Assembly: GCA_041499985.1 (NCBI GenBank)
Contig: JBGQLF010000001.1
Location: 1-33,494 of the forward strand
Source: Gemmataceae bacterium
GTDB lineage: Bacteria; Planctomycetota; Planctomycetia; Gemmatales; Gemmataceae
DNA: 33,494 nt
Direction of reading: 5' to 3'
Within the stretch, counting starts at the first letter, position 1. Each line of letters begins with the position of its first letter. Under the pieces are notes generated by a model. It was not told the DNA's origin. It was given only the letters and a program-made list of their open reading frames with translations, and did no database searches. The translations under genes were made by a program, and so were the position numbers. Below are positions 967-16,356 of the stretch, one piece after another.

Positions 967-1488
967 TCAGCCCGGCTCGCGCGCGAACGCTGGGGCGTTC
1001 TTGCTGAGCCATTCCTTGAGATCGGCCTGCGATTCAAACTCAGCGACCTGAATACTGTCGATGGTCGGTCCCGTTTCACCGACACTCCTGATGTCTTCTT
1101 CGGTCATCTCGCGAATCCACATCACCCGATGTCTCTGAAGTCCGCCCGTGGTTAAATTGATGGTTCCTTCACTTAGCGGCATGTCGAGGTTGCTCCCTCG
1201 GATCAGAACCAGGTAAACGAGGTCCCCGGAGAATTTCAGAAGCAGACCCTCGGAAGGGTTATACTGCCAGGGGCCGAGCCAACCGTAAGGGAACCAGGTG
1301 CTGTTGCCCTCCCGGAAGCGGAACTCAACCGCACCTGCATGGTCTCTGATACCGCGCAAATACCCAAACGCCACGCACGAAGCTTCGCCTTCCTCGGCTT
1401 CCGCCTCTTTTTTCGGCGGCTGCGCGCCGTTCCCTTCCATATGCAGGATTCCCTTCAATCGCTCCCGATGGGTCGGCTTATCGGTCAT
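967..1488 (-). CDS. hypothetical protein, translationally coupled to the relaxase 3' end
   Basis: 173-aa ORF whose start at 1488 overlaps the relaxase stop at 1478 by 11 nt on the same strand. I recognise no domain. Confidence 0.6.
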   Translation of the reverse strand: MTDKPTHRERLKGILHMEGNGAQPPKKEAEAEEGEASCVAFGYLRGIRDHAGAVEFRFREGNSTWFPYGWLGPWQYNPSEGLLLKFSGDLVYLVLIRGSNLDMPLSEGTINLTTGGLQRHRVMWIREMTEEDIRSVGETGPTIDSIQVAEFESQADLKEWLSKNAPAFAREPG

Positions 1489-4174
1489 GGTCCATTTCCC
1501 TTTCCGCCGTCAGGTTTCTTGCACTACCCGGCTGGGTTAAATGGTTTCGCGCGGCAATGGCAGCCAGCTGTTGAGCGGTCGTCAGGTGCTTCATAAGCCG
1601 ATTCCGCAAGGTCGGTTTGTGTTTCGTTGCCTCAGCAAGCTCCGTCGCGGACAGCGGATCGTCCGGCCGGCTGATCGCCCTCAGCAGTTCCCTTCTGTCG
1701 TCCGTGAAAATCTGTGCCTGTTCCTTCCCCCGCGTCACTGCGACGTAGGCGGTCCGCTGGTAGGTCGCCGGGAACGATTCGCTGGACACACCGATGAAGA
1801 CCTTATCCACCGTCACGCCCTGGCTGGCGTGGCTTGTAACCACGTACCCGTGGGTCAGGTGGCCGAAATCCCTCGCGATGATCCAGCCGTGATCGACGAT
1901 GATGTCACCCCGGGCGGTGAATCCCTGGACATTCAGGAGTGAGCCGTTGCTAAGGCGATGCTTGCCGTCTTTTGTCTTACCACCTGCCGTGACGCGGACG
2001 CGGTCCCCGACGGCCAGGGCGATCTGCACCGGCCGATACGCCTCGAACCGCTTGGCAAGCTCGGTCGGTGGCTCGACCCGCTCGCCCACGATCAGGCGTG
2101 ATCCTTTCTGGTAGCCGGGCGCGTTCTGCTGAAATTGGAGCAGGTCGCCCGCCTCATATTCGGTGGCGTCCGCTTTCTGTGCGTCCGTCAGGTGAGCGGG
2201 AACCCATGCCTCAACCAGGCGTTCCTGACCAAGCTTGCCCTGCGCCTTCAGCCCGGAGCGAATCGCCTGCGTGATCCGGTCCCCTTCGGCGTGCGTCGGC
2301 GACACGACGAGCGCTGACTTGGCCAGACCGCCCCGCTTCTTTTCAGCAACGGCCGCCAGATAGGCGGTGGCCAGTTGCTTGTCGCGGTCACCACCCTCAA
2401 CCTGCTTGATCCAGCCCAGCTTGTCGAGTTCCGCGAATCCCTCCTCCGTCCTGCCTTCGCTCAGCGCCTGCGCGGCTTTCTTGTAGTCACCCTGTTGGCG
2501 AAGGATTTCGGTCACCTCCGCCACTCGCAGCCCGGCCGTGTCTTCCAATAGCTTGAGCGGCTCGCCAGCCGTGACACTCCGGTGCTGCCGGCGGTCGCCC
2601 ACGAGGATCACCCGGGCGCCGACGGATTCGGCCACATCAAACACCTGGCCCATGTCCCGTGTGCCGAGCTGGGAGGCTTCATCGACAAGGATGACGCCGC
2701 CTCTAGCCGATTCCTGCATCTCCTGGTCCTTCAGGAACCTGGCCACGGTGTCGGCATCGGCGAACCCTGCTTCCTCACGCAGCACTTCCCGGCTGGCCTT
2801 AACCGACTGGGCCAGAGCCACCACCGGCCGCCCGGCCTCGGCCAGGGCTTCGCCGATCTCCTGTTCGAGCGTCGTCTTGCCTGTTCCGGCGACACCGCGG
2901 AGTATCATCACCCGGTCGCGGGAACCGAGCACATGGCGGACCGCCGCCTTTTGTCCGTCGTTGAACCAATCGCGGGAGCATGGCCGGTCCGGGTCCCCCA
3001 GCGGCCGGAATTTCCCCCGCCCCTGGCGAGCGAAGGCGATCAGCCCGGATTCCAGAGCCAGCATCTCCTTCGTCGTTGCCATTTTGCGTCCGGCGGCATC
3101 GCTGCGGATGAGAGGGCGCGCGCTCACCTCGCGTGTTACGCCCTCCACGGTGACCGCACCAAGGCCGCGTTTCAGGGCTTCGGTGAGCAGCTTGCGTTCC
3201 GGCACCACCGCCTCGCGCACGAAGCTGTGGTCGATGGCGTGATCGACCGCCAGCCCTTCGCCGTGTTCCGGCCGGGCGAAAACACGCTCGCGACGATGAA
3301 CCGCTGCCAGCGCATCGCGCTCCTTGTCGGTCAGGCGGGCGTTCCATGACTTCCGCAAGGCTTCCCAGCCGAGCGCGGAATCTTTCTTTTCGCGAGTCTC
3401 GGCTCCGAGTTCCGCCTTTCGGTCGGGGTCGGTGATGCCCTTCTCCTCGGCCACCTTCTCAATAAGGGCCGTACGCCGCGAGAAGCGCTTGAGCACATCC
3501 GCCGGTATCCCGGCAATCTCGAAATCGTCTCGCTTCCGCTCAACCCCGAAGCCCAGGTCCTGTAAACGATTGGCCAATCGAACCCGGAATGCCGCCTGGA
3601 AGTAAGGGGCATCGCGTTTAAGTTCCCGGAACTGGCCCGCTTTCCAACGGCGTTCCTCCTCGTCCCAGGTCGTGTTGAACACGAAACAGTGAGCATGCAA
3701 CTGCGGGTCGGGGACTCCGTCCACGGGGCGGGAGGTGGTATGGATGAACTCGGCCCAGACCATGTTTCCCGTCGTGCGGTCTTCATCCTTGCCGCCCATG
3801 CGGACGCGCGTTTTCATCTCCGCTTCCATCTCGCGCATCGTTTCATCGACCGCCCCACGGAACGCATCCATGATGCCCTGGTCGCCGCTCATGGCGTAGA
3901 GCAGCGATACACTCTTGGGAACGCTGAAGGTGAAATCATAACCCACGGTCCGCTCCGAGCGCGTCCGCACCGTCAGCGGGTCTCCGGTCCTTGGGTCGAG
4001 GTTATCGCAGAGTCTTTCAAAGGAGAATTTGTCTACCGTCCCATCCAGCCCCAGCCGGGACGCGCCTTTGCCGCCCCAGCAGCCGACCAGTTCCTGTCCT
4101 TCGCTGTAGTAATCCGCCGTCGTGTAGTAAGACTTGGCGGACGTGGCACTATCCTGTTGCGTGATACGGATCAT
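1478..4174 (-). CDS. MOBF-family conjugative relaxase with C-terminal RecD-like helicase (TrwC/TraI type)
   Basis: The N-terminus MIRITQQDSATSAKSYYTTADYYSEGQE...GYDFTFSVPKSVS matches the TrwC relaxase domain. The histidine triad is HTTSRPVDGVPDPQLHAHCFVFN, Walker A is GVAGTGKTT and Walker B is ILVDEASQLG. Length 898 aa. Confidence 0.95.
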   Translation of the reverse strand: MIRITQQDSATSAKSYYTTADYYSEGQELVGCWGGKGASRLGLDGTVDKFSFERLCDNLDPRTGDPLTVRTRSERTVGYDFTFSVPKSVSLLYAMSGDQGIMDAFRGAVDETMREMEAEMKTRVRMGGKDEDRTTGNMVWAEFIHTTSRPVDGVPDPQLHAHCFVFNTTWDEEERRWKAGQFRELKRDAPYFQAAFRVRLANRLQDLGFGVERKRDDFEIAGIPADVLKRFSRRTALIEKVAEEKGITDPDRKAELGAETREKKDSALGWEALRKSWNARLTDKERDALAAVHRRERVFARPEHGEGLAVDHAIDHSFVREAVVPERKLLTEALKRGLGAVTVEGVTREVSARPLIRSDAAGRKMATTKEMLALESGLIAFARQGRGKFRPLGDPDRPCSRDWFNDGQKAAVRHVLGSRDRVMILRGVAGTGKTTLEQEIGEALAEAGRPVVALAQSVKASREVLREEAGFADADTVARFLKDQEMQESARGGVILVDEASQLGTRDMGQVFDVAESVGARVILVGDRRQHRSVTAGEPLKLLEDTAGLRVAEVTEILRQQGDYKKAAQALSEGRTEEGFAELDKLGWIKQVEGGDRDKQLATAYLAAVAEKKRGGLAKSALVVSPTHAEGDRITQAIRSGLKAQGKLGQERLVEAWVPAHLTDAQKADATEYEAGDLLQFQQNAPGYQKGSRLIVGERVEPPTELAKRFEAYRPVQIALAVGDRVRVTAGGKTKDGKHRLSNGSLLNVQGFTARGDIIVDHGWIIARDFGHLTHGYVVTSHASQGVTVDKVFIGVSSESFPATYQRTAYVAVTRGKEQAQIFTDDRRELLRAISRPDDPLSATELAEATKHKPTLRNRLMKHLTTAQQLAAIAARNHLTQPGSARNLTAEREMDHDR

Positions 4175-4451
4175 GCCTACATTTTATCATATCACAGTTT
4201 CGTTAACTAATCCTTAACTAACATCTGCTCCACCGCATCTAGCCTCGGTTTGCGAGGATTTCACATTCCTCAATGTCACCCGCGCGCCACCGCAATGTCA
4301 CACCCACACCGCTGACCGATTCTTCGTCTGTCCGTTCTTATCAGATGTTGCTTGAGTACTCTCGATGGACACCTGGGTTGCTGCTTTGTCGCCTATCCGA
4401 CGACGACTCCCATGTTTTCTTCTGTCTCTAAAACGAACGTTTATGACAAAC
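4175..4451. other. candidate oriT / divergent control region between relaxase and Fic
   Basis: 277-bp non-coding gap next to a MOBF relaxase start. Direct repeats caatgtcac occur at 4271-4279 and 4293-4301 (minus strand GGGTGACATTG and GGGTGTGACATTG), and ttaactaa occurs twice (4203-4221). An inverted 8-mer pair is aacatctg (4219-4226) and cagatgtt (4342-4349). The minus-strand run cggtgtgggtgtgac loosely recalls G/T-rich F-type nic regions. Confidence 0.35.
4181..4189 (-). promoter_or_regulatory. possible extended -10 (TGATAAAAT on the minus strand) 6 nt upstream of the relaxase ATG; implies a leaderless or near-leaderless relaxase mRNA
   Basis: Minus strand reads ...gatatGAtaaaat-gtaggc-ATG. 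No Shine-Dalgarno sequence is visible, and the -35 is weak. Confidence 0.3.
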
Positions 4452-5564
4452 TCATGGCAGGCTATACCAAGTGGCCTTTCCGGCGCCATGCTGGACAAGA
4501 TGCCGCTTCTCCACCAGGTTGCGGAAATGCTCTTTCAGCGTGTTGCGACTGGCGCCGCTTTTGCGGACCATGTCGCTCATCGTCACGCGGCCATGATCGC
4601 GGGCATAGTCCAGTATCTTCACGGCCAGCTCGGGCAGGGCGGCAAGGACCAGTTTTTCCTGCTCGACCTTGGCGGCCAGGCGCCGCTTTTGCTGTTGCAG
4701 GGCGCGAACGAAAAACCCGATCCAGGGCTGCCAGTTCGGCGCCTCGGTGCGGATCGTGCCTTGCGTCTGCCGCAAGGCGAGATAATAGCCTTCCTTGCTA
4801 TGCTCGATGACGCTCTCAAGTGAACTGTAGGGGACATAGATGTAACCTGCCTGTAATAATAGCAGGGTGGTCAGAATCCGGCTCAAGCGGCCGTTGCCGT
4901 CCTGGAAGGGGTGAATTTCCAGGAACACCACGACAAACACACCGATCACCAGCAAGGGATGCAGGCGGCCGGTGTCGCGGGTCTCATTCAGCCAGGCGAC
5001 AAGCTCGGCCATAAGGCGCGGCGTGTCGAATGGGGTTGCCGTCTCGAACACGATGCCAATCTGCCGGCCGTCGGCGTCGAAAGCGGCCACGCTGTTTGAG
5101 TTCGTCTTGTAGCTGCCGCGATGCCGTTCGTCCTTTTCGCTGTAGGCAAGAAGGTCGCGGTGCAATTGGCGGATGTGGTTTTCGGTAAGAGGGATGTCCT
5201 GCCAGGCGTTGAATACCAGGTCCATCACCTTGGCGTAGCCGGCAACCTCTTGCTCGTCGCGGGTGGCAAAGGATGTGATTTTGAGATTGGCAAGCAGGTG
5301 CTCAACCTCGCGATCTGTTAGCTTGCTGCCCTCGATGCGGGTTGACGATCCGATGCTTTCGATAGTCGCGACGCGGCGCAATGCACTCAGGCGCTCGGGT
5401 TCCAAGGTGCCAAGCGAGCGCCAGGCACCTTTGAATTCATCGATCTCGGCGATCAGCGCCAGCAACTCGGGTGTGATTTGAATGGTATCGCTTTTCAGTA
5501 TATAATGTATCCTTTCACCCGTATTATCACCCGATTCCACCCAAAAGTCCACCCGTATTATCAC
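4452..5564 (-). CDS. Fic family protein (class II, intramolecular inhibitory motif) with C-terminal winged-helix domain
   Basis: Fic motif HPFQDGNGRLSRIL, inhibitory (S/T)xxxE(G/N) motif STRIEG, N-terminal ITPELLALIAEIDEFKGAW and C-terminal wHTH-like RVTMSDMVRKSGASRNTLKEHFRNLVEK. The start is uncertain: 5564 is a GTG inside a repeat. An in-frame CTG at 5498 would give MKSDTIQITPELL, the usual N-terminal length for this family. Confidence 0.9.
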   Translation of the reverse strand: MIIRVDFWVESGDNTGERIHYILKSDTIQITPELLALIAEIDEFKGAWRSLGTLEPERLSALRRVATIESIGSSTRIEGSKLTDREVEHLLANLKITSFATRDEQEVAGYAKVMDLVFNAWQDIPLTENHIRQLHRDLLAYSEKDERHRGSYKTNSNSVAAFDADGRQIGIVFETATPFDTPRLMAELVAWLNETRDTGRLHPLLVIGVFVVVFLEIHPFQDGNGRLSRILTTLLLLQAGYIYVPYSSLESVIEHSKEGYYLALRQTQGTIRTEAPNWQPWIGFFVRALQQQKRRLAAKVEQEKLVLAALPELAVKILDYARDHGRVTMSDMVRKSGASRNTLKEHFRNLVEKRHLVQHGAGKATWYSLP

Positions 5565-5576: not shown

Positions 5577-5777
5577 GAATCATGCGATGGTCAATGGCCG
5601 GATTTATTCCATCATCGCGAAAACTGGCGGTGGCCTCCGGCGTTCGGTACAAGGTAGCGCTCCTCTCAGACTTTCTTGTCACAAACTGTGGTATATTTAG
5701 CACATATTTTAGCACACACATTAACATGCACAGATAATCACTATAAGTATCAATATTATATCTGTTAGGCCATCTGC

Positions 5778-5822
5778 CTCATAACCTGAAGGCCGCAGGT
5801 TCAAATCCTGCCCCCGCAACCA
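5778..5822 (+). other. 3' half of a tRNA-Met(CAU), initiator-like (anticodon loop to CCA); no 5' half present; att core of the adjacent integrase
   Basis: ctcataacctgaaggccgcaggttcaaatcctgcccccgcaacca closely parallels E. coli tRNA-fMet as I recall it (CTCATAACCCGAAGGTCGTCGGTTCAAATCCGGCCCCCGCAACCA). The upstream 40 nt are AT-rich and cannot form the D arm, the 5' anticodon stem or the acceptor 5' strand. Confidence 0.75.
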
Positions 5823-5973
5823 ACCATTGCAAGACAAAACAATGACTTGGCCGAAAAGAACAAACCGGAAGATGACCGGAAACGGCTAACGCACTTCTAA
5901 CACATGAATTGTCATCCCGACGCCAGCATGCTATTCAGGAGCATCGTTTTCGCAAAATAGCGTGAGGTGCAGC

Positions 5974-7245
5974 ATGACTAGCCACGAATTCCTCGGTGGA
6001 AAGGTTCAACTCTACAGACGCGGTAGAAGCAGTTTTTGGCAGTGTTCAGCCTCGGTTGGCGGCAAGCAGAGACGATCCAGTACCAAGGAAACAAGCCTGG
6101 AGTTGGCCAAGCAAATTGCCGAAGACTGGTATCTCACGTTACGCGGCAAAGATCGTGCTGGCTTGCTGAAAACAGAAAAGACCTTTGAAGAGGCGGCAAA
6201 GCAGTTCCTTAAAGAATACGAGATAATCACCGAAGGCCAGCGTAGCCCTCGCTGGGTTGAGGGTCACGGCATTCGTATGCGACTGCACCTGCTGCCTTTC
6301 TTTGGTGATTGCGGCGTGTCTGAAGTGTCAGCGGGCAAGGTGCAGGAGTATCGCGTGCATCGCATCTCCACCTCACGCACCGGCAAGGCACCGGCCCGCA
6401 GCACACTTCACGACGAGATCGTCACGCTCAGGCAGATACTCAAGACCGCAATTCGTCACGGGTGGCTCACACATCTCCCTGACCTCTCACCTCCCTACAG
6501 AACTCAGGGCAAGATCGTGCATCGCCCGTGGTTCAGTCCTGCCGAGTACAAGCAACTTTATGAGGCTACTCGCGAATATGCTCGCGAGCCTTTCCACGAG
6601 CATTACAAATGGAACGCCGAGCAGGTTCATGACTACGTGCTCTTCATGGCCAATACCGGCCTCCGGCCCGATGAGGCAAAGAATCTGCAACACCGCGACG
6701 TGTTAATCGTCGTGGACGAGGCAACCGGCGAGCGCATTCTTGAGATCGAAGTGCGTGGTAAACGTGGCATCGGATTTTGCAAGAGTATGCCGGGTGCCGT
6801 GAAAACGTATCAGCGATTGCTCGCCCGACCATTGCCCGAACTGCCTCGGGGCAAACGTGCCCGCCGCCGCAGAGCCGAAATGGGCGACGTTCCTGAGTCG
6901 GGAGAAGTCAAATTCCCAAAACCCAATGACCACGTCTTTCCAGGGAATCACATCAAGCTCTTCAATGGCGTGCTCAAACGCGCCAATCTGAAAAAGGACC
7001 GTGATGGCAACCGTCGCACTGCTTACAGCCTCCGCCATACCTACATTTGTATGCGACTCATGGAAGGTGCTGACATCTACCAGATCGCTAAAAACTGCCG
7101 CACGAGCGTCGAGATGATCGAGAAGTTTTATGCAGCCCACATCAAGAACACGCTCGATGCAGCCGCCATCAATGTCCGCCGTCCCAAACCGGCATCCCGC
7201 AAGGGTAGGACACCGCAGCCAAAGAAGCCACTTGACGACGAATGA
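5974..7245 (+). CDS. int: tyrosine recombinase / integrase
   Basis: C-terminal catalytic region TGLRPDEAKNL...AYSLRHTYICMRLMEGADIYQIAKNCRTSVEMIEKFYAAH carries the R, H-x-x-R and Y residues. The track ORF opens at a GTG at 5962, and the first ATG is at 5974 (MTSHEF...). It lies 150 bp downstream of the tRNA fragment. Confidence 0.9.
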   Translation: MTSHEFLGGKVQLYRRGRSSFWQCSASVGGKQRRSSTKETSLELAKQIAEDWYLTLRGKDRAGLLKTEKTFEEAAKQFLKEYEIITEGQRSPRWVEGHGIRMRLHLLPFFGDCGVSEVSAGKVQEYRVHRISTSRTGKAPARSTLHDEIVTLRQILKTAIRHGWLTHLPDLSPPYRTQGKIVHRPWFSPAEYKQLYEATREYAREPFHEHYKWNAEQVHDYVLFMANTGLRPDEAKNLQHRDVLIVVDEATGERILEIEVRGKRGIGFCKSMPGAVKTYQRLLARPLPELPRGKRARRRRAEMGDVPESGEVKFPKPNDHVFPGNHIKLFNGVLKRANLKKDRDGNRRTAYSLRHTYICMRLMEGADIYQIAKNCRTSVEMIEKFYAAHIKNTLDAAAINVRRPKPASRKGRTPQPKKPLDDE

Positions 7246-7577
7246 GCAGATGTAAACTACGCTTTTTCCAAAGGGAGACGCAGGTCACCCACTTGCTTTA
7301 AGAGCCGTTCAGCGGCTCGCCGATCAGGGGCTTGCCCCCTCCTGTCGCGCCGAAGGGCCAATGTATGCCATCTTTTTGAGGTTCTGGGCACGTCGCCATC
7401 CGGGCGACGGATTGCTTCCAGGCTTCGCTTCGCTGCGGTCCTAAAGACGGCCATCGCCCCCTCTCGCTCTCCCGTGTGAGAACCGAGGGTGACCCGTGTT
7501 ACCTTCAGGGACGTGTGCTGCCGGTTAGGCGCGCCGCTTCCTTCCTTCCATCGAGCCAGCCCCGCCCGTGGCCTATT

Positions 7578-7775
7578 GAAACGGCACTGTGAAGCAGCCG
7601 ACGGGCCGGTCAATCACCGGCTTCCGTTGCGAAACGGCGGCAAGCTAAGGCGGCAAGCCGCCGAGCTTGCCAGTGCCGTTTCGTTCTCACCCGGCGATTG
7701 ACCGTCGCCCAAGTGCTCCCGTCTGGGCCGCTTCTGTTGCGTGCCGTAAGGCCCCGATGAGCGGGGCCGGAAACT
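7578..7775 (+). promoter_or_regulatory. structured leader module, copy 1 (upstream of the 87-aa ORF / ParB / ArdC operon)
   Basis: The 5' block gaaacggcactgtg...acgggccggtcaa and the 3' block gcgtgccgtaaggccccgatgagcggggccggaaac are shared with copies 2 and 3. Nested inverted repeats are present (7603-7620 with 7690-7710; 7631-7646 with 7664-7682). The hairpin GGCCCCG/CGGGGCC sits 8 nt before the SD (aaggagaagga), and the ATG is at 7795. Confidence 0.6.
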
Positions 7776-7794
7776 CAAGGAGAAGGAAATCATC

Positions 7795-8058
7795 ATGTCT
7801 AAACCAGCACACAAACTCCGCATCGGCGTCCTGCAAGTCACGATCTGGCGCAACAGCGGCGACAAGGGCAACTGGTACAGCGTCAATCCCACCCGCAGCT
7901 ACAAGCAGGGCGATGAAACCTGGAAGGAAACCGACAGTCTGGGCTTCGACGACCTGCTGACGATGGCCAAGCTGTTCGACCAAGCCCACACCTGGATCAT
8001 GCACCAGCAGCAGGCCGACGCCAAGGCCCGCAAGGAATCCGCGCAGGCAGCCGCCTGA
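7795..8058 (+). CDS. small conserved mobile-element protein (87 aa), possibly OB/PC4-like ssDNA-binding (weak impression only)
   Basis: Strong SD (aaggagaagga) 8 nt upstream and a GC3-biased ORF. It is the first gene after module copy 1. The sequence KLRIGVLQVTIWRNSGDKGNWYSVNPTRSYKQGDETWKETDSLGFDDL has a beta-rich pattern. Confidence 0.7.
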   Translation: MSKPAHKLRIGVLQVTIWRNSGDKGNWYSVNPTRSYKQGDETWKETDSLGFDDLLTMAKLFDQAHTWIMHQQQADAKARKESAQAAA

Positions 8059-8065
8059 GCCGGAT

Positions 8066-8103
8066 GCCGGCGGGTGGCCCTGCTGCCCGCCGGCCTCATT
8101 TTC
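8066..8103 (+). terminator. stem-loop with T-run (partial terminator or attenuator) between the 87-aa ORF and the ParB-like gene
   Basis: gccggcggg (8066-8074) pairs perfectly with cccgccggc (8086-8094) and is followed by ctcattttc. Confidence 0.4.
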
Positions 8104-8128
8104 AACCATCAATCTAAAGGAGTCTCTT

Positions 8129-10072
8129 ATGAACAATATCGACATCACCACGCAAACGCAGCTCATTGCCGTCAGCAGGCTGGAGAAATCCCCGCTCAAC
8201 GCCCGCCGCACCGTCCGACCGGACGGGATGGGCGAGCTGAAGGCTTCCCTGCTGGCACACGGCCTGATGCAGAACCTCGTCGTCACCGACGCTGGCGACG
8301 GCGCCTTTCGCGTCATCGCCGGCGGACGGCGTCTGGAGGCGATCCGCTCGCTTCAGGCCGAAGCCAAGCTGCCAGCGGATTTCGCGGTGCCATGCCAGGT
8401 CGTGACCGAAGACCACGCTCTGGAAATGAGCCTCGCCGAGAACACCGTCCGGCTGGCCATGCACCCGGCCGACCAGTTTGAAGCGTTCGCCGCCCTCATC
8501 GACAAGGGAGCGGCCGCTGCCGAGGTAGGGCAGCGCTTCGGCGTCGAGGAGGGTCTTGTCCTCAAACGGATGAAGCTGGCCCGCGTCGCGCCGCAGCTGC
8601 TCAAGGAATACCGCAGCGACGGCATCACGCTGGAATGCCTGATGGCCTTCACCGTCACGGACGACCATCGTCGTCAGCTCAAGGTCTTCAAGTCCCTGCA
8701 AGACTGGCAGAAGAACGACCCGAGCGCCATCCGCGCCGCTCTCACCGAAAAGATGATCGAGGCTGGCAGCAAGCTGGCCCGCTTCGTCGGGCTGGACGCC
8801 TATGTGGCGGCCGGCGGTGCCACCCGCGCTGACCTGTTCGGCGAGGAGGTCTATCTCGAAAAGCCGGTTCTCCTGCATCGGCTGGCCGAGGAGAAACTCG
8901 ACGGCATCCGACAGGAGCTGGAGGCCGAGGGCTGGGGCTGGATCGAGATCAACCCGGAGCGGGACTGGGAAACCATCCACCGCTGCGAGCGGATTCGGCC
9001 GCGACTGATCGGGGCGTCGGCCGAGCTGGTCGCTCTCAAATCGAAGCTGGACGCCGAGCTGGAGGAAACGGAAAGTGCCCTTGCTGACACCGAGTCCGAT
9101 TCCTTGCTGGAGCAGCAGCAGCAGGCGCTTCAGGACCGGCTAGACGAAGTGGAGCAGAAACTTGCTGCCTTCGTCGGCTTCGACGCCGAGCATAAGAAGC
9201 TGGCCGGCTGCTATGTCTCGATCGGCCAGGACGGCACGCCGTTCCTCGACAAGGGCCTGGTGAAACCCGAACACCGCAAGCAACTGGCCCGGCTACTCAA
9301 GGCAGATGGCGGGGACGGCGAACCGGCTCAGGCGAAGCCGAAAAACCCCTTCTCCGAGACCCTGCGCCGCGACCTCGCCAACTACCGCTTGCAGGTAGCC
9401 CAGGTCGAGATCGCCAAGCATCCGGCGATTGCCCTCGATCTTCTGGTCTTTAAGGTAGCGAGCGTGATGCTGGGAATGCATCGGGTCCCAGACGGGCCGG
9501 ACTTGCTTTTCAAGCGTCACGACGCGGTTCCGACGACGCAGAAGGCAGGGACTCCGGCCAGTGAGACCCTGGCAGCGATTGAGAAATCCCTTCCCGACGG
9601 TTGGCGCAAGCCGAAATCGGAAGCCGCCCGCTTCGAGGCGTTCCGCTCGCTGCCCCAGGCGGACAAGCTGGAGTTGCTGGCCTACTGCGTGGCGTTGACG
9701 CTGCAACCGAAGCTCGCTCCCGCTGACGGCGACGAGGCCACGGCCTACGATGCCGCACTGGCGTTGACCGAAGCCAGCGTGGCCGGCTACTGGCGTCCGG
9801 GCAAAGACAACTATCTCGGCCGCATCACCCGCGACCAGTTGCTTGCCCTTGCCCGCGACACCCTGGGCGAAGCGTGGGCGCAATCGCGAGCGAGCGACAA
9901 GAAAGCGTCGCTGGTCGAGCAATTGGACCGCGCCTTCGCCGATCCCGCCAAGCAGGGCCGGACGCCCGAGCAAGCGGAAAAGCTGAAAAGCTGGCTTCCC
10001 GCCCGCATGGCCTTCGGCACTGTTCCCACGCTGGAAGCCGGCAAGGCTAACAAAGCCAGGAAGGTGGCCTGA
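8129..10072 (+). CDS. ParB/Srx N-terminal-domain protein (large plasmid/ICE ParB-like nuclease-domain protein)
   Basis: N-terminus LIAVSRLEKSPLNARRT...LKASLLAHGLMQNLVV...FRVIAGGRRLEAIRSL matches the ParB N-domain GxxR box. It has a long helical C-terminal extension (647 aa). SD aaaggag lies upstream. Confidence 0.9.
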   Translation: MNNIDITTQTQLIAVSRLEKSPLNARRTVRPDGMGELKASLLAHGLMQNLVVTDAGDGAFRVIAGGRRLEAIRSLQAEAKLPADFAVPCQVVTEDHALEMSLAENTVRLAMHPADQFEAFAALIDKGAAAAEVGQRFGVEEGLVLKRMKLARVAPQLLKEYRSDGITLECLMAFTVTDDHRRQLKVFKSLQDWQKNDPSAIRAALTEKMIEAGSKLARFVGLDAYVAAGGATRADLFGEEVYLEKPVLLHRLAEEKLDGIRQELEAEGWGWIEINPERDWETIHRCERIRPRLIGASAELVALKSKLDAELEETESALADTESDSLLEQQQQALQDRLDEVEQKLAAFVGFDAEHKKLAGCYVSIGQDGTPFLDKGLVKPEHRKQLARLLKADGGDGEPAQAKPKNPFSETLRRDLANYRLQVAQVEIAKHPAIALDLLVFKVASVMLGMHRVPDGPDLLFKRHDAVPTTQKAGTPASETLAAIEKSLPDGWRKPKSEAARFEAFRSLPQADKLELLAYCVALTLQPKLAPADGDEATAYDAALALTEASVAGYWRPGKDNYLGRITRDQLLALARDTLGEAWAQSRASDKKASLVEQLDRAFADPAKQGRTPEQAEKLKSWLPARMAFGTVPTLEAGKANKARKVA

Positions 10073-10081
10073 TCAACACTC

Positions 10082-10110
10082 GGGCGGGCAGTGATGCCCG
10101 CCCATTCTTT
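10082..10110 (+). terminator. stem-loop with T-rich tail after the ParB-like gene
   Basis: gggcgggc (10082-10089), loop agtgat, gcccgccc (10096-10103), then attcttt. Confidence 0.4.
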
Positions 10111-10125
10111 GGAAAGGAATCTCCC

Positions 10126-11046
10126 ATGATGAATCGTATCGACCTCTACACCCGCGTCACCAACGCCATCATCGCCGACCTTGAAAAAGGGGTTCGCCCC
10201 TGGCTCAAGCCCTGGAACGCCGAGCACGCCGCCGGACGGATCACCCGGCCCTTGCGAGCGGGCGGCCAGCCCTACAAGGGAATCAATGTGCTGATGCTCT
10301 GGGCAGCGGCCATGACCCAGAACTTCGCCGCCCCCATCTGGATGACCTTCCAGCAGGCGAAAGAACGGAAGGCCAACGTCAGGAAAGGCTCCAGGGGATC
10401 GCTGGTCGTCTACGCCGACCGCATCACCAGGACCGAGACCGCCGCAGACGGTGAGGAGAACGAGCGCGCTATCTACTTCATGAAGGGCTACACCGTCTTC
10501 AACGTCGAGCAGATCGAGGGGCTCCCGCCCCACTTCTACGCCACCGCCGCGCCGCAACTCGATCCGCTGCACCGGATCGAGCCGGCCGACCTGTTCTTCG
10601 CCAACACCAGGGCCGACATCCGCCACGGTGGGAATCACGCTTATTACGCCCCCGAGCCTGATTACGTGCAGATGCCGCCGTTCGTGTCCTTCAGGGACGC
10701 CGAGAGTTATTTCTCGACGCTGGGACATGAAATGACCCATTGGACGAAACATCGGGCCCGGCTCGACCGGGACTTCGGTCGCAGGAAGTTCGGCGACGAA
10801 GGTTACGCCCGTGAAGAACTGGTCGCCGAGATCGGGGCCGCGTTCCTTTGCTGCGACCTCGGCATCACCCCGGAACCCCGCGACGACCACGCCGCTTACC
10901 TCGACCACTGGCTCAAAGTCCTGAAGGACGACAAGCGCGCCATCTTCCAGGCAGCCGCCCACGCCCAACGGGCCGTGGACTTCCTGCACGGGCTCCAGCC
11001 CGTTGGGGCACACATCTCAACTCACGAGCGGGGAGACCAGCCATGA
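10126..11046 (+). CDS. ardC: ArdC-like antirestriction protein (N-terminal ssDNA-binding domain + zincin metalloprotease domain)
   Basis: DLYTRVTNAIIADLEKGVRPWLKPW...YKGINVLMLW...WMTFQQAKE matches the ArdC-N/DUF1738 pattern. It carries an HEMTH metalloprotease motif (HExxH). Length 306 aa. Confidence 0.9.
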   Translation: MMNRIDLYTRVTNAIIADLEKGVRPWLKPWNAEHAAGRITRPLRAGGQPYKGINVLMLWAAAMTQNFAAPIWMTFQQAKERKANVRKGSRGSLVVYADRITRTETAADGEENERAIYFMKGYTVFNVEQIEGLPPHFYATAAPQLDPLHRIEPADLFFANTRADIRHGGNHAYYAPEPDYVQMPPFVSFRDAESYFSTLGHEMTHWTKHRARLDRDFGRRKFGDEGYAREELVAEIGAAFLCCDLGITPEPRDDHAAYLDHWLKVLKDDKRAIFQAAAHAQRAVDFLHGLQPVGAHISTHERGDQP

Positions 11047-11315
11047 CCGGCGTCTTTCGCTTTCCGCTCGGTCAGGTGGCCGTCACCGCGAACGCCAGCT
11101 TGCGGCTCACCACCGAAGAGGTTCTGACCGCCCTGCGCCGGCACGCCTCCGGCGACTGGGGCGACCTGTGCCCCGAGGACACGCTGGCAAACGACACCGC
11201 CGTGCAGCAAGGAGGCCGGCTGTTGTCGGCCTACGGGCAAGGCGCAAGCCGCTTCTGGGTCATCACCGAGGCGGACCGTTCCGTGACGACGCTGCTCTTG
11301 CCGCAGGACTACTGA
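11043..11315 (+). CDS. small conserved plasmid/ICE protein (90 aa; GDWGDL...FWVITEADRS..TLLLPQDY type)
   Basis: The ATG at 11043 overlaps the ArdC stop (ATGA). The track ORF 10848..11315 is an upstream over-extension in the same frame. Confidence 0.7.
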   Translation: MTGVFRFPLGQVAVTANASLRLTTEEVLTALRRHASGDWGDLCPEDTLANDTAVQQGGRLLSAYGQGASRFWVITEADRSVTTLLLPQDY

Positions 11316-11637
11316 CAAGCCGGCCAGTTCCGACTGCTCACCCTGCCTCACAGGCACGGTTGCGCATCGGCCCGTCAGCGCCGCCCCGTGCCACGGCCGA
11401 ACAGTGGGTGGCCGCTGGCCACCTTAGCGGAACGATGGCACGGAGTAGCCAGTCCAGTGGCCGAATCCCATCGCCAACGGCAGGGGTGATCTGGCCGTGG
11501 AACGAGCACGATCGAAGGTACTAATGGCGAGAAAAAATGGCCGGTCTGGCTGGCGGAAACATGCCCAGCCTTTAGGATAGCCCCCTGTCAATGAGGTACC
11601 TCCCCTCTTCCGTCCCGCCCCCGCACGGGGTCCTCAA

Positions 11638-11766
11638 AACGGCACTGTGGGGACGCCGCCGGGCCTGTCAAGCTTGCAGCGGGACCCTACCCCCTTCGCT
11701 TGACAGGCCCGGACTATGGCCTCCCCGCTCGCGTGCCGTAAGGCCCCGATAAGCGGGGCCGGAAAC
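11638..11766 (+). promoter_or_regulatory. structured leader module, copy 2 (upstream of the small-ORF operon)
   Basis: Same 5' block (aacggcactgtg...ccgggcctgtcaa) and 3' block (gcgtgccgtaaggccccgataagcggggccggaaac) as copy 1. It has perfect 15-bp inverted arms, ccgggcctgtcaagc (11659-11673) and gcttgacaggcccgg (11698-11712). SD gaggagga follows, and the ATG is at 11787. Confidence 0.6.
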
Positions 11767-11786
11767 CCGAAGAGGAGGACACCACG

Positions 11787-11948
11787 ATGAGACACGCACA
11801 CACCGACCAAGCCCCGACGGGCGCCGACACGCCGGCCGACGAGTTCGACGCCTGGCTTGACGCATTCGCCAGCGCCGAGGCGGACGACGCCCTGGACCGA
11901 CAGCTGTTCGCGATCCGTGAATCGCTTGCCGACTTCCGCAGCCTGTAG
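11787..11948 (+). CDS. hypothetical acidic small protein (53 aa)
   Basis: Below the ORF-track size cut-off. My translation is MRHAHTDQAPTGADTPADEFDAWLDAFASAEADDALDRQLFAIRESLADFRSL*. It sits exactly where the genes following the other module copies start. Confidence 0.5.
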   Translation: MRHAHTDQAPTGADTPADEFDAWLDAFASAEADDALDRQLFAIRESLADFRSL

Positions 11949-11962
11949 CAAGGGAGCACGCC

Positions 11963-12196
11963 ATGACAAACCAGAACTGCCTCGCCGGCGTGAAATGCCC
12001 GGAATGCGGCAACGAGAATCACTTCCTGATCGTCGCCACCATTCTTGCGGACGTGACCGATGGCGGTGCCGATATCGCTGACGGCTCAGACTTTCACTGG
12101 GATGACGCCAGCATGACTCGCTGTCCCGATTGCGACAAGGACGGCCCGCTATCCGAGTTTCACACACAATCAACCGAGAAAGGAATCGCAACATGA
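11963..12196 (+). CDS. zinc-ribbon small protein (77 aa)
   Basis: CPECG...CPDC cysteine pairs. SD aagggag lies 7 nt upstream, and the stop overlaps the next ATG (ATGA). Confidence 0.65.
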   Translation: MTNQNCLAGVKCPECGNENHFLIVATILADVTDGGADIADGSDFHWDDASMTRCPDCDKDGPLSEFHTQSTEKGIAT

Positions 12197-12597
12197 AAGT
12201 ATTCGACAACTACGAGATCAGCCCCTGCAAACGGTACGAGGAACCCGACTCACCCGGAAAGTTCTACTTCGAGGTCTGCGCGGCGGCCGAGGCCGATGTT
12301 TGGACGCTCTACGGCCACATCAACGGCGAGGGCGTTCAGGCGATCGGTGACTTCTCCACCCGCGAGCACGCCAAGGAGGTGTACTCCTGCATTACTGGGC
12401 AGGCGTTCCCGGATTCTTATCTGTCAGCCGACTGGCTCAGGGTCATTCACACGGGGCCGAAATTGCTGGAGGCCCTCAAGGAATTAGTGGTGCATCTCGA
12501 TGAGGATTGCCCCGCGTCTTCCCGGTGCCGGCACCTTACAGAAGCAATCGAGAGTGCTCACGCTATCGTTGCCGAAGCGACCCGGAGGGCAGCATGA
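12193..12597 (+). CDS. hypothetical protein (134 aa), shares a C-terminal module with the next ORF
   Basis: ATG at 12193 preceded by gagaaagga. The track ORF from 12130 is an over-extension. The protein ends ...AIVAEATRRAA. Confidence 0.7.
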   Translation: MKVFDNYEISPCKRYEEPDSPGKFYFEVCAAAEADVWTLYGHINGEGVQAIGDFSTREHAKEVYSCITGQAFPDSYLSADWLRVIHTGPKLLEALKELVVHLDEDCPASSRCRHLTEAIESAHAIVAEATRRAA

Positions 12598-12935
12598 ACA
12601 CCACGAAGCATTCCCCAGCACCTTGGAGCTACGAGTACAGCCCGTACACCGTCCGTAATCCCGGAACCCACGGCACCAAGCAACCGGGGAACGACATCCC
12701 CGCCTATGAAATCTTCGATGCCGATGGCAACAAGGTCTTCGATACCAACGAGGACACCGCGGACGAACTTCAGGAAGCAAACGCTCGCATGGGAGCAGCT
12801 GCCCCAACGCTGCTGGTATCTCTCGTCACGTATGCGAACCTGCTCGCCGACTACGACGAATCGGACGGCCCCGAAGGCGAAGCCTACCGTGAGGCCCTGG
12901 CTGCAATCGCCGAAGCGACCGGGAGGGCAGCATGA
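12594..12935 (+). CDS. hypothetical protein (113 aa), paralogous C-terminal module
   Basis: The ATG at 12594 overlaps the preceding stop (ATGA) and is preceded by GGAGGG. The protein starts MNTTKHSPAPWSYE and ends ...AAIAEATGRAA. Confidence 0.7.
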   Translation: MNTTKHSPAPWSYEYSPYTVRNPGTHGTKQPGNDIPAYEIFDADGNKVFDTNEDTADELQEANARMGAAAPTLLVSLVTYANLLADYDESDGPEGEAYREALAAIAEATGRAA

Positions 12936-13087
12936 CGAATGATCCAATGAAACCGGGCCGCCTTCAGGAACGCCTCGGCCCGACGCCAGAGAGCGCTTCC
13001 TGTTATTGGCTTGCCGCTCCCATACCGGGGGTGGATCCCCCGCTCCATCAAGGATACCCTCCGGCGTCCGAAGCGACCCCTCCCTAG
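12932..13087 (+). CDS. possible third coupled small ORF (51 aa), maybe a decayed paralog
   Basis: The same GGAGGGCAGCATGA junction occurs at 12922-12935. My translation is MTNDPMKPGRLQERLGPTPESASCYWLAAPIPGVDPPLHQGYPPASEATPP*. It again ends in ..EAT.. and the DNA carries ccgaagcgaccc a third time. Confidence 0.3.
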   Translation: MTNDPMKPGRLQERLGPTPESASCYWLAAPIPGVDPPLHQGYPPASEATPP

Positions 13088-13874
13088 CTTCCGCGCGCCC
13101 AAAGCCTCGCTTGTGCAGCCAGTGAGACCCTCCCCGCCGTCCGTCCTTGACTCCGCTCCCCCCTTGCATTTTTCCCTCTGTTCCGGTTGATCGCGTTCGA
13201 TCAAACCAGACATGAATCACTCCAAGCTCCCGAGGCGCAAGCTTCATCCTGATTCCAATCTCGCGCCCCCGCGAGCGATATCCACATCACTGTTCCGAGC
13301 GTCGGCTGAAACCGGCGCTCGGCTGCCATATACCCTTGACTTCTTCAGCCCTCCCGAAGGGCGCTCCCCCTCACGCATTGATGCGGTTTTGCCGCAATGA
13401 ACCATGCATGTTTTTTGCAAGCTTGCTAATCATTTTTTGCACAGGCGTCTTCCCTATGCTCTGCATAGGCCGACTGGAACGGTTCCAGCCGCCTGAATTG
13501 CCACCGAAAGCACCCGATGCCATGAAGGCTTGCACGAGGCGCCGCCTTCTCGGATTTCCGTCCTGCCCAAGCTCTTATGAATGAAATCAAGAAGTTTGTG
13601 CAATACTTGTCAGAGCAGTGGTCGAGCCCTGCTGCTACGGAAGGCAGATGGGCCGCACCCAGAGCCGGGGGCAGAGTTTGAGACGACGGCCAATCACACT
13701 CTTATACGTGGGTTGGATACCACAGGACCGTTTTTCGTCTTGACCTTCCTGAGCCTGCGGTCGTGCGTCGGCACCGTTGCGTGTATTCAACGGGCCGGCC
13801 AAAAGCTTGGGACCAGGGTTGCCAACTATTCTCTGCCACCGGCGCTGACTGCGGGGCTTTGTCGGCGAATCCAG

Positions 13875-15002
13875 CTACGAAGCTTGAGCCACCGTCGTCG
13901 GAAGTGAAACTGTCCGCGCGATTGCCCAAATAAAGGTGGCCATCTCACGGGCAATGGCAGTAACGGTTATATTCTTGTTCTTGCCACGCGCACACATGGA
14001 CCGGTAACGGTGGCAAAGCCTAACCTGTGCCTTCCAGGCGATGTCCAGCACTTCTTTTGTCAGGCCGCTGTGCCGTTGTGTCAAAACGCTGCTGACCCGA
14101 GCAGGCATCCGGTACGCCCAAGCGCCTTCAATTAGGACCCGTCGCGCGTGCTTACTGCCCGCCTTGGTGATGGGTCCCCGGATGACGCGGCTTCCGGATG
14201 AATGCTCAGACGGTGAGAGCCCCAGGTAACTGACCAGTTGCCGAGGGTGGATGAAACGGCTGAAGTCGCCGATCTCGGACACCAGGATCACGGCGGCGAT
14301 CTCGGACACGCCACGCATTGCCTGGATCGCCTGCACCACCGGCGCCAGCGTCCAGCCGGGCAGCAGCTTCATGATCTGTTGCTCCAACCGGGAAAGCCGG
14401 TCTTGGCTGTCGCGGATGGCCGCCAGGTTTTCCTCGATTAGAATGTAATGCGCCGGATGGTCGAACTTCAGCTCACGAATCCAGTTGATGTGGGCCTTGG
14501 TCCAGTGGGTCTTACCCTGGTAAATGCGGCCGTGCCGAAGCAGGAAGCCTTGAAGGTGCTGGCGGTATTTCTTCACCATGTCCATCGCCGTAGTGCGGGC
14601 CCGGATCAGGTCACGCATGGCCTCATGGGCCTCGTCGGGCACCCAGATTGTGGTCAGGTCTCCGGCGCGGTGCAGCCGGGCCAGCTCCAGCGCGTCGCGA
14701 CGATCGTTTTTGACGCGAACGCCCTTCTTGGTGGGAGTATGGGACGGGGCGATGACGATACACTCGTGACCCAACCCCGCAATCTGGCGCTGAAGGCCAT
14801 ACCCGCATGGGCCCGCCTCGTAGCAGAAAAATAGCTTGCCGTACTTGCCGGCCAGCTTCTTGAGGAGCTTCAGGACCGCCGCTGGCTCGTTGGCGATTTG
14901 TCCGTAGTAGCGAATCTCGCCGTCTCGGCCGTCCTCGGCGATGGCAACGGCGATGGTCTCTTTGTGCGTGTCAAGTCCGATAAATGCTGTATTATTGGTC
15001 AT
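13875..15002 (-). CDS. IS110 family transposase
   Basis: N-terminus MTNNTAFIGLDTHKETIAVAI matches the DEDD/RuvC-like domain. The C-terminal Transposase_20 pattern is LLPGWTLAPVVQAIQAMRGVSEIAAVILVSEIGDFSRFIHPRQLVSYLGLSPSEHSSGSRVIRGPITKAGSKHARRVL. Confidence 0.95.
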   Translation of the reverse strand: MTNNTAFIGLDTHKETIAVAIAEDGRDGEIRYYGQIANEPAAVLKLLKKLAGKYGKLFFCYEAGPCGYGLQRQIAGLGHECIVIAPSHTPTKKGVRVKNDRRDALELARLHRAGDLTTIWVPDEAHEAMRDLIRARTTAMDMVKKYRQHLQGFLLRHGRIYQGKTHWTKAHINWIRELKFDHPAHYILIEENLAAIRDSQDRLSRLEQQIMKLLPGWTLAPVVQAIQAMRGVSEIAAVILVSEIGDFSRFIHPRQLVSYLGLSPSEHSSGSRVIRGPITKAGSKHARRVLIEGAWAYRMPARVSSVLTQRHSGLTKEVLDIAWKAQVRLCHRYRSMCARGKNKNITVTAIAREMATFIWAIARTVSLPTTVAQAS

Positions 15003-15012
15003 GGCTTACCTC

Positions 15013-15290
15013 CTATGATTGAGTCAAGGCGGCGGACCATCCGCCGCAACACTCGTATATCACAGCCGAGGTAAGCCGCCTCGCATTTCATTCATAGGGC
15101 CTGCGGCATCCCTGGCCGCACCTTTGGTCCCGCGGCCGAAAATCCGGGGCGATGGGCAGGCGGCGGCTGTCCCATGCACCCATGCACACGATTGCCCTAA
15201 ATGCCCCGAGAAACGTCTATGTCAAACCCCGAAAAAGCTGCGAAATGCAAGTGGCGAAAGTCTAGGTTTTATGCGGTTGTGATAGCTATC
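15013..15290 (-). ncRNA. candidate IS110 5' non-coding RNA (bridge/seeker-type guide RNA region) including an SD-sequestering stem
   Basis: This is an inference from family knowledge: IS110-group elements encode a structured guide RNA upstream of the recombinase. Seen in the sequence: ggcttacctc (minus strand, 15077-15068) is complementary to the SD/start context gaggtaagcc (15012-15003). An inner hairpin gcggcgga/tccgccgc and several further GC stems are also present. Confidence 0.35.
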
Positions 15291-15439
15291 AGTGCTCTGT
15301 GAGCCGCATAAATCCTCACTTTTTTGCCTATGAACACGCGGAAACCCGCAGCCAGCCTCTTGCGCAGCCACATACAAATGTGTTAATATCTTCCTTAATG
15401 GGGGTTAATCAATGCCCCCATAACGACACGGAGGATCAT

Positions 15440-15868
15440 ATGTCATCACGTAAACGCACACCGGATAAAGAGTCAACAGAAACCGTCACAGCAGTCGCCG
15501 AACCACCAGCCGCCGAAGCCAAGGCAGACGGCCTGAGCTTCGCCGAGCGGGTGGGTCAAAAGAGATTTGTAACACCCCCCGATCCGTTCCTCATCGCTGT
15601 GGACAACCTTGCGGGCGTCCGCCTCTTCGAGAGCAAACAGGACCGCCAGATGGCCGTGAAGTTCGAGGACAAGCCGAGCCAGGCAGTCATCGACACGATG
15701 AAGGAGGCAGGATTTAGGTGGATGCCGGTAGACAGGATTTGGGCGCACCCGGTCAGGTCTGAATTCGCTCTGAGCACTCGGATCGATGCGGAAAGGCTTT
15801 ATCAGGAAGTGTGCAAGATGATCCGGCAGGAGAAGGGTATTGAGGCCGGACAAGAAGTGCCCTTCTAA
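15440..15868 (+). CDS. hypothetical mobile-element protein (142 aa)
   Basis: ATG at 15440 preceded by acggagga. The track ORF from 15299 is an over-extension. The C-terminal part reads VKFEDKPSQAVIDTMKEAGFRWMPVDRIWAHP. Confidence 0.7.
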   Translation: MSSRKRTPDKESTETVTAVAEPPAAEAKADGLSFAERVGQKRFVTPPDPFLIAVDNLAGVRLFESKQDRQMAVKFEDKPSQAVIDTMKEAGFRWMPVDRIWAHPVRSEFALSTRIDAERLYQEVCKMIRQEKGIEAGQEVPF

Positions 15869-15892
15869 GCAGCAGCCCGTTACATTTGTCCC

Positions 15893-16321: not shown

Positions 16322-16356
16322 CGACAATTCATCCCCACAATCTGTAGGAGACCAAT

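Follow-up and report, generated by a model that had tools for sequence, protein, structure and literature searches.

Long minus-strand hairpins as a putative family of single-stranded-DNA promoters in planctomycete conjugative elements

We analyzed a 33,494-nt stretch of DNA from a Gemmataceae bacterium (assembly GCA_041499985.1, contig JBGQLF010000001.1, positions 1 to 33,494 of the forward strand), hereafter referred to as the window, which contains three copies of a structured module, all on the + strand and each ending 15–25 nt short of a Shine–Dalgarno (SD) sequence and an ATG. This element is real, conserved and structured, with neither an Rfam family nor a match in the databases searched. 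The structure of the modules, the covariation of their arms, the invariance of a set of promoter-like bases, the strand asymmetry of folding and the gene context lead us to favor, with somewhat more confidence than doubt, the view that the modules are a conserved family of single-stranded-DNA (ssDNA) promoters, similar to Frpo in function, unrelated to it in sequence and carried by MOBF/MPF_T plasmids and integrated elements of Planctomycetota. Promoters of this kind are thought to let incoming plasmids express anti-defense genes before becoming double-stranded and, to our knowledge, they have so far been known mainly from a handful of enterobacterial plasmids.

The 17-nt 3' block GCGTGCCGTMAGGCCCC was found in exact form at 7739, 11731 and 16887, against a chance expectation of 0.44 even with three mismatches allowed, and CGGGGCCGGAAAC also has three exact copies in the window; the 5' block is located at 7580, 11638 and 16761. 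These block matches bear out the three + strand copies described in an earlier note on this DNA. A profile search with the left arm yielded no fourth copy in the window, and one module copy each in the plasmids pSINAC03 and PALBO2. Copy 1 (7555–7774 for the whole long hairpin) begins with a GC block upstream of the 5' block (block A, 7555–7573) and continues, through an apical hairpin between the left and right arms (about 7620–7690), to the right-arm closing helix GTGCCGT (7741–7747, + strand), block B (7748–7768) and GGAAAC (7769–7774). The SD sequence AAGGAG (7777–7782) and the ATG (7795) of an 87-aa open reading frame (ORF) follow on the + strand, and then the ParB-like and ArdC genes. Copy 2 (11614–11766) has its block A at 11614–11633, its right closing helix at 11733–11739 and its block B at 11740–11760, and copy 3 (16738–16921) has the corresponding parts at 16738–16755, 16889–16896 and 16897–16915. 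The earlier note had the modules serving the ParB-like, ArdC and methyltransferase-helicase genes. This assignment is correct for copy 3, the sole copy directly preceding the methyltransferase-helicase gene (ATG at 16944), and the ParB-like and ArdC genes do lie behind the 87-aa ORF of copy 1, but ArdC is not the gene served by copy 2, which lies downstream of ArdC and serves a 53-aa ORF starting at 11787 and other small ORFs.

On the minus strand, the whole module, blocks A and B included, folds as one imperfect hairpin of about 150–220 nt. The DNA folds of this strand had energies of −80.1 kcal/mol for copy 1 (z = −8.4 relative to shuffles, with B' paired with A'), −59 kcal/mol for copy 2 (z = −6.5) and −70.4 kcal/mol for copy 3 (z = −6.2), and the + strand DNA folds of the three copies gave z = −4.3 to −5.9. 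The A'/B' pairing was present in the minus-strand minimum-energy folds of all three window copies and of 30/30 family members. Block B is therefore not primarily a separate terminal hairpin, since it pairs with the upstream GC block A in all folds; the 3' block delimited in the earlier note is present, but its GGCCCCG/CGGGGCC hairpin is better read as one half of this duplex. A family member recovered from metagenomes with a variant B stem and loop (L099; GGCCGCG/CGCGGCC) has a block A altered to match. From its base, the hairpin consists of an A'/B' duplex of about 17–19 bp with a small internal loop, a 3–6-nt bulge on the 3' (A') side, a closing helix (ACGGCAC/GTGCCGT or a compensated variant, such as GCGACC/GGTCGC) and then, in order, an internal loop, a 16-bp helix, the TTGnnn helix and a variable apical part. 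No T-run follows the hairpin at any copy and a terminator scan listed nothing at the modules, which thus lack the makeup of intrinsic terminators. An Rfam search of the whole window gave no match at gathering score, and a permissive scan (E ≤ 5) of 7300–17100 yielded only a chance-level match to mir-623 (25 bits versus a gathering score of 70).

The left arm, read on the minus strand, contains a promoter-like motif consisting of TTGnnn, a 16-nt spacer and [T/C]AnnGT. In copy 1, the −35 box TTGACC (7608–7613) lies in a duplex and is followed, after the spacer (7592–7607), by the −10 box CACAGT (7586–7591). The two boxes are TTGACA and CACAGT in copy 2 (+ strand positions 11666–11671 and 11644–11649, with the spacer at 11650–11665), and TTGCAC and TACAGT in copy 3 (16789–16794 and 16767–16772, with the spacer at 16773–16788). 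For 29 distinct modules, ascertained by hairpin B alone, we aligned the left arms as reverse complements and tagged each base with its partner in the fold of its own module. The TTG was almost fixed (T 29/29, T 28/29, G 26/29), and the three bases following it were variable yet paired, one of these columns being UA7/GC7 in a 15-sequence subfamily alignment (A3). The spacer was 72–100% paired per column, and its distal seven columns displayed two or three Watson–Crick pair types each (for example, CG17/GC11, GC14/CG11, GC12/TA11, TA15/AT11, TA18/GC9). In the −10 hexamer, the A at the second position was found in all 29 modules and was unpaired in 26/29 folds; it corresponds to + strand T7590, T11648 and T16771 in the three window copies, and is unpaired in copy 1. 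The middle of the hexamer was mostly unpaired, the final T was found in 29/29 modules and the closing helix covaried (GC24/CG5). Furthermore, [T/C]A..GT was present in every true member recovered from metagenomes, for which the hexamer had been left out of the search pattern.

Recognition of a sigma70 promoter depends mostly on its TTG, the A at −11 and the T at −7. The bases frozen in the modules are those that sigma70 reads, and neighboring stem positions change freely in pairs. The single-strand promoter, one of the two readings put forward in the earlier note, is thus supported: the 5' block described there corresponds to a minus-strand −35/−10 pair, with the correct spacing and with the sigma70-relevant bases invariant. 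The right arm has subfamily-specific insertions at the would-be −10 and, in the copy-3 type, a TGG facing the TTG, homologs retaining this mismatch. This arm therefore cannot act as a promoter, whether in duplex DNA or in a plus-strand hairpin, and a consensus scan called no sigma70-like + strand promoter near the modules. A sigma54 reading of GGCAC was also considered, and dropped because of its wrong spacing.

The arms of the hairpin covary, as had been proposed from the three window copies. The perfect 15-bp arms of copy 2 were confirmed, and the covariation is borne out by the pair-type changes described above, by chimera energies and by shuffles of A3. Native basal stems had a mean of −29.6 kcal/mol, versus −21.2 kcal/mol for between-class chimeras of a right and a left arm, which lose 8.4 kcal/mol on average, only 3.5% of them reaching the native mean. 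MAFFT with RNAalifold, applied to the 30 modules together, retrieved no more than the closing helix and hairpin B, because the right arms carry subfamily-specific bulges and misalign; this alignment was replaced by per-sequence folds anchored on the left-arm alignment and by A3. RNAalifold, unaided, recovered from A3 the A'/B' helix, the closing helix, the proximal spacer, the −35 helix and the apical stem. Standard pairs accounted for 93% of the cells, versus 30–54% with the partners slid by 1–3 columns. The covariation score was 0.136 versus 0.091 in shuffles (0/500), and there were 17 double-sided changes versus 6.5 (0/500), shuffle fractions that are not probabilities because the A3 sequences are related. 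The complement of the 5' block within copy 1 (7671–7682), which had suggested a switch between two mutually exclusive partners, is real and in fact extends to 18 nt at 89%; however, it is part of an apical hairpin seen in a single subfamily, and its pairing is only partial in the nearest homologs (L031, L033 and L041), which does not fit a conserved switch.

Folding also differs between the strands. The minus strand was more stable than the plus strand in 29/30 modules, by a mean of 6.6 kcal/mol with DNA parameters and, again in 29/30 modules, by a mean of 9.8 kcal/mol with RNA parameters. The difference shrank in part when G-T/G-U pairs were forbidden. There were 48 G-T pairs in the minus-strand folds versus 25 in the plus-strand folds, and several columns with recurrent G-U pairs in the minus-strand alignment correspond to C-A mismatches on the other strand. 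A structure of the plus strand, whether RNA or DNA, is therefore disfavored, as the minus strand folds better and holds the wobbles.

A first scan with the hairpin-B motif alone, in one genome per species, identified 79 loci, about 27 of which were clearly the same module. These members, from Planctomycetota-type genomes or metagenome-assembled genomes (Gemmataceae, Planctomycetaceae and Tepidisphaeraceae, with a few bins labeled otherwise), all precede genes for homologs of the 87-aa protein or the methyltransferase-helicase. In metagenomes, a second scan with the left-arm pattern and the −10 region free gave 120 loci, mostly chance matches in GC-rich coding DNA, with about 20–25 true members; these include modules ahead of other small ORFs and modules with a variant hairpin B and a variant GGAAAC, a hairpin B being kept. 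Module identity between homologs was 0.72–0.93, versus 0.50–0.61 at the least-conserved codon position of the adjacent gene, indicating that the module is under purifying selection. The left neighbor of copies 2 and 3, of all copy-3-type homologs and of the pSINAC03 module is the 3' end of a co-directional gene, leaving the minus-strand boxes with no sensible target in duplex DNA. A divergent ORF to the left of the p87-type modules, with an SD-like GGAGA and an ATG, was rejected, since its reading frame was not conserved in our own translation.

The apical loop of copy 3 (16804–16827, minus strand) contains two direct repeats of a GGGGGAnACC motif, GGGGGAGACC-TTCA-GGGGGAACC, which are kept in 16/30 family members, across modules serving different genes, and which could be a protein or primase binding site. 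Separately, CTTGCCGC motifs are iterated upstream of p87-type modules in L033, L041, L046, L063 and L081; the window has 11 copies versus three expected, including two within the copy-1 apical hairpin (7637–7657), and these motifs might be candidate binding sites for a partition or relaxosome protein.

We infer from these features that RNA polymerase would bind the minus strand when it is single-stranded and folded. The long imperfect hairpin would mimic an entire sigma70-type promoter, from about −60 to +20. Its 3' arm, the reverse complement of the 5' block, would act as the non-template strand, supplying TTGnnn, a 16-bp duplex spacer and the weak −10 [T/C]AnnGT, the key A of which would be kept unpaired in an internal loop. 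The closing helix GTGCCGT/ACGGCAC would form the discriminator duplex, the 3–6-nt bulge on the non-template side would mark the start site, and the A'/B' pairing would provide the downstream duplex. The polymerase would then leave via the hairpin base, transcribing along the minus strand, and the mRNA would begin at the A of AGGCCCC, with stem-loop B first, followed by the SD sequence and the ATG. From the −10 geometry (about 7 nt past the −10), transcription is predicted to start at A7748/A7749, the first base of block B, in copy 1, at A11740/41 in copy 2 and at A16897 in copy 3. No rightward promoter exists in ordinary duplex DNA, so expression would be tied to the single-stranded state and would cease upon synthesis of the complement. 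In addition, this long GC-rich hairpin could prime or delay complementary-strand synthesis, as described for F.

The modules resemble the Frpo and ssi elements of F and ColIb-P9 (ssp1/Frpo1-2 and ssi1-3) in being long imperfect hairpins of one strand in which −35 and −10 boxes are rebuilt with normal spacing and a mismatched −10 region, in having several copies per element, one per operon, and, in our model, in that transcription would exit the hairpin base into co-oriented establishment or anti-defense genes. Hairpins of this type are responsible, in F and IncI plasmids, for the expression of ssb, psiB, ardA and further establishment genes from the incoming strand (PMC11541004; PMC12672017), and gene types like those preceded by our modules (the 87-aa protein, ParB-like and ArdC genes, or the methyltransferase-helicase) are among those driven by ssDNA promoters (PMC11541004; PMC12672017); F has several ssDNA promoters, one per leading-region operon (bioRxiv 10.64898/2026.01.09.698686). 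By contrast with Frpo/ssi, the modules are very GC-rich with a weak −10, they add a downstream duplex (A/B) and a start-site bulge, and their hosts are Planctomycetota; moreover, the genes that they serve and the relaxase gene are on opposite strands, unlike in F and R388. A blastn search (distant mode) of the copy-1 region only (7400–8200) against 72,556 plasmids matched two planctomycete plasmids and no IncF or IncI record, although the collection includes both, an indirect comparison made without direct alignment to Frpo. Hairpins without Frpo homology have been described more recently, including ssp2 of F, three of pESBL and the Frpo' candidates of Samuel et al. 2024 (PMC12672017; PMC11541004). 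These newer hairpins, which were identified in intergenic DNA ahead of leading-region operons, resemble the planctomycete modules in having possible −35/−10 boxes (PMC12672017; PMC11541004), and they can also bar complementary-strand synthesis (bioRxiv 10.64898/2026.01.09.698686). They come from Enterobacteria or single islands, and the support presented for them appears to be a predicted fold and consensus boxes (PMC12672017; PMC11541004). The planctomycete modules differ in having comparative support, from the covarying arms and the invariant bases seen at about 30–50 loci. The element is most probably a new sequence family of ssDNA promoters in planctomycete conjugative elements. The minus-strand origins of filamentous phages and the rolling-circle single-strand origins (sso) are also single-stranded hairpins that mimic a promoter, host RNA polymerase recognizing only their single-stranded state; unlike our modules, they make short primers for DNA synthesis, with no SD sequence and ORF following, and they are not known to be related in sequence.

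Several points nevertheless weigh against an ssDNA promoter. Many of the family members are closely related, so that the counts given above overstate their independence. By the E. coli standard, the boxes score 7–9 of 12 and are missed by a consensus scanner, and most folds place the final T of the −10 in a base pair. The promoter-proximal half-spacer (GGCCCGGCGG) and the apical-loop repeats are conserved in sequence beyond plain sigma70 needs, and a further factor is therefore perhaps involved. There is also no experimental background for planctomycete promoters and conjugation (bioRxiv 10.1101/2024.01.22.576637). The remaining difficulty concerns strand polarity. The strand logic of the earlier note, according to which the minus strand must be the single-stranded one, is right, and the conflict it raised with a candidate origin of transfer (oriT) beside the relaxase gene is real: in 12/12 elements showing both, the relaxase gene and the module-served genes are on opposite strands. 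The layout is divergent in the window, L028, L031, L033, L046, L063 and L080, and convergent in L004, L041, pSINAC03 and PALBO2, that of the twelfth element (L038) being unclassified. In R388, used as a control with nic located, nicking affects the strand that is antisense to trwA-C and that serves as template for ssb and ardC; the relaxase and ArdC genes are on the same strand in this plasmid, whereas they are on opposite strands in the planctomycete elements. With R388-like polarity and an oriT beside the relaxase gene, the + (sense) strand would be transferred and the folding strand would stay in the donor. This question of transfer polarity limits our confidence in the promoter model.

An empirical rule states that anti-defense genes are templated by the transferred strand (T-strand) (PMC11541004). 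If this rule holds, the nick would be on the relaxase-sense strand and the minus strand would be transferred. With such a nick, the module operon is within 4–8 kb of a relaxase-proximal nic in the convergent elements and would be transferred last in the divergent elements, including the window. The strand relation is invariant while the position varies, which suggests that strand, not entry order, is what matters. It is possible, although rather unlikely in our view, that the polarity conflict reflects real biology, in one of two forms. These MOBF elements would either nick the relaxase-sense strand, such that the relaxase gene enters first and the hairpins fire on a T-strand inverted relative to F and R388, or transfer the plus strand, the hairpins firing on the donor-retained strand or on other transient single strands. 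In the latter case, the expression of the ArdC, ParB-like and methylase genes would be linked to the act of transfer in the donor, perhaps to allow co-export. In either form, this would be a new conjugation-coupled control of genes and a first mechanistic handle on conjugation in Planctomycetota.

No nic or oriT was found by alignment of the relaxase-upstream regions, an inverted-repeat scan or k-mer enrichment, and 22092–22909 and 25740–25916 contain no recognizable oriT. The alignment revealed only conservation between the window and L080 and a recurring GGTGAC motif, and an R388-like k-mer lead, TGCGTATG, was dropped because its positions were inconsistent. An F-like string, GGTGTGGGTGT/GACATTG, occurs on the relaxase-sense strand and is at most a hint. 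The direct repeats GGGTG(T)GACATTG upstream of the relaxase gene (4290–4325, minus strand), shared with L080, are a candidate oriT element, as is, again only as a hint, a 7-bp inverted-repeat hairpin followed by GGTGGGGTGT in L004 (2171–2197), which resembles the F nic region. The relaxase genes of this family have a TATAAT located only 5–7 nt before the ATG, and no SD sequence, as in L028, L046, L063 and the window, where the sequence is GATAAAAT (4175–4200, minus strand). This arrangement suggests that the relaxase mRNAs are leaderless or near-leaderless, and it shows that these elements use a canonical −10.

Among the alternatives, the minus-strand hairpin could be a single-strand origin or replication barrier, priming or stalling complementary-strand synthesis and serving the adjacent genes only incidentally. 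In the priming case, RNA polymerase or a primase would recognize the hairpin, in the manner of the filamentous-phage minus-strand origin, the sso sites of rolling-circle plasmids or the primer activity of Frpo. The same structural evidence applies to this explanation as to the promoter, the ssDNA promoters of F have been described as both priming and blocking conversion (bioRxiv 10.64898/2026.01.09.698686), and the conserved G-rich repeats of the apical loop could be a loading site. We nevertheless consider it unlikely, as the module is at a fixed 15–25 nt from an SD sequence and ATG at every locus and the predicted start coincides with the 5' stem-loop and the SD sequence; furthermore, such an origin would be compatible with the promoter model and shares its strand-polarity problem. 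An element acting in duplex DNA appears to us no more probable. It would be a leftward promoter for the divergent relaxase gene or for an antisense RNA, the palindrome being an operator, a cruciform or a bidirectional transcription stop. The boxes are indeed present in duplex DNA too, and seven elements have a p87-type module facing the relaxase gene at a distance of 0.3–4 kb, which a leftward transcript could cover. However, a co-directional gene lies directly to the left of the copy-2- and copy-3-type modules and of the p87-type module of pSINAC03, the relaxase genes have their own TATAAT a few bases before the ATG and the hairpin has no T-run after it; this explanation also leaves unaccounted for the compensatory changes over about 80 bp of arms, the unpaired A and the strand asymmetry.

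The earlier note considered an RNA-level leader to be as plausible as an ssDNA promoter. In this explanation, the hairpin would form on the plus strand, within an mRNA generated by read-through or by upstream initiation, and would act as a processing site, a stabilizer or a protein- or ligand-responsive regulator of the downstream ORF. The fixed position ahead of an SD sequence and an ATG would be expected of a leader, hairpin B is a plausible 5' stabilizer after processing, and any palindrome also folds as RNA. Nevertheless, the plus strand is the less stable one in almost all modules even with RNA parameters, the wobble positions become mismatches on it, the alternative pairing of copy 1 is not conserved, Rfam has nothing at gathering score in the window and the invariant bases suit the promoter boxes of the opposite strand. 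We therefore rate the leader as improbable, marginally more so than the two preceding explanations, and not as an equal of the ssDNA promoter. A non-functional repeat, in the form of a palindrome resembling a miniature inverted-repeat transposable element (MITE) or a repetitive extragenic palindrome (REP), or a chance similarity, would agree with the palindromic and multi-copy nature of the module. It is very improbable, given the constant place of the module relative to orthologous genes, its conservation above that of the wobble positions of the neighboring genes, the covariation of the arms and the presence of only three copies in the window.

If the modules are indeed ssDNA promoters, the principle would extend to a distant phylum, and the case for it is comparative, through the covariation of the arms and the invariance of the bases that sigma70 reads. 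The family offers concrete, testable start sites and point mutations, and its fixed orientation opposite to the relaxase gene raises the question of which strand is transferred. Self-silencing promoters of this kind and the accompanying plasmid parts would possibly be useful as genetic tools for Planctomycetota.

The relaxase gene of the window (1478–4174, minus strand) encodes a TrwC/MobF protein (Pfam TrwC, 3e-72) and is on the strand opposite to the module-served genes. It is followed by a Fic gene (4452–5564, minus strand) and then by a block of + strand genes (5962–22091). This block consists of a 427-aa ORF to the right of the Fic gene, the 87-aa ORF (7795–8058), the product of which had no match in Pfam, NCBIfam or PDB, the ParB-like gene (8129–10072), the ArdC gene (10126–11046), several small ORFs and the gene for the 1,700-aa methyltransferase-helicase (16944–22091). 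It is broken between copies 2 and 3 by the insertion of an IS110-family transposase gene (13875–15002, minus strand). The minus-strand genes from 22910 on, among them an 832-aa ORF (25917–28415) and a 584-aa ORF (29945–31699), we take for a type IV secretion set, judging only by ORF size and order. Five copies of an element of this kind are present in the Gemmataceae chromosome OY969623.1. The closest annotated relatives are two plasmids from Isosphaeraceae (Planctomycetota), pSINAC03 of Singulisphaera acidiphila, which is typed MOBF, MPF_T, and PALBO2 of Paludisphaera borealis. MOBF is the common relaxase type in planctomycete plasmids and chromosomes, as reported in a 2024 survey, and, according to the same source, there has never been an experimental demonstration of conjugation between planctomycetes (bioRxiv 10.1101/2024.01.22.576637).

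Terminator-like GC hairpins with T-rich tails are present just after the 87-aa ORF (8066–8094) and after the ParB-like gene (10082–10103), and the copy-1 operon may therefore be attenuated or segmented. An AT-rich stretch at 5740–5840 (GC 0.48) contains an apparent 3' portion of a tRNA-Met(CAT) gene, with an anticodon loop (CTCATAA), a T-arm (GGTTCAAATCC) and an acceptor end (...GCAACCA), and ARAGORN identified no complete tRNA there. This stretch, located between the Fic gene and the 427-aa ORF, is probably an att-site remnant or an integration scar. If so, the Fic gene and its neighbors would have been inserted between the relaxase gene and the module operon, which adjoin each other in most related elements. 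Finally, the intergenic DNA directly preceding the 832-aa ORF contains an AT-rich inverted repeat of 23 nt (25793–25910; 74% complementary, with the arms 72 nt apart).

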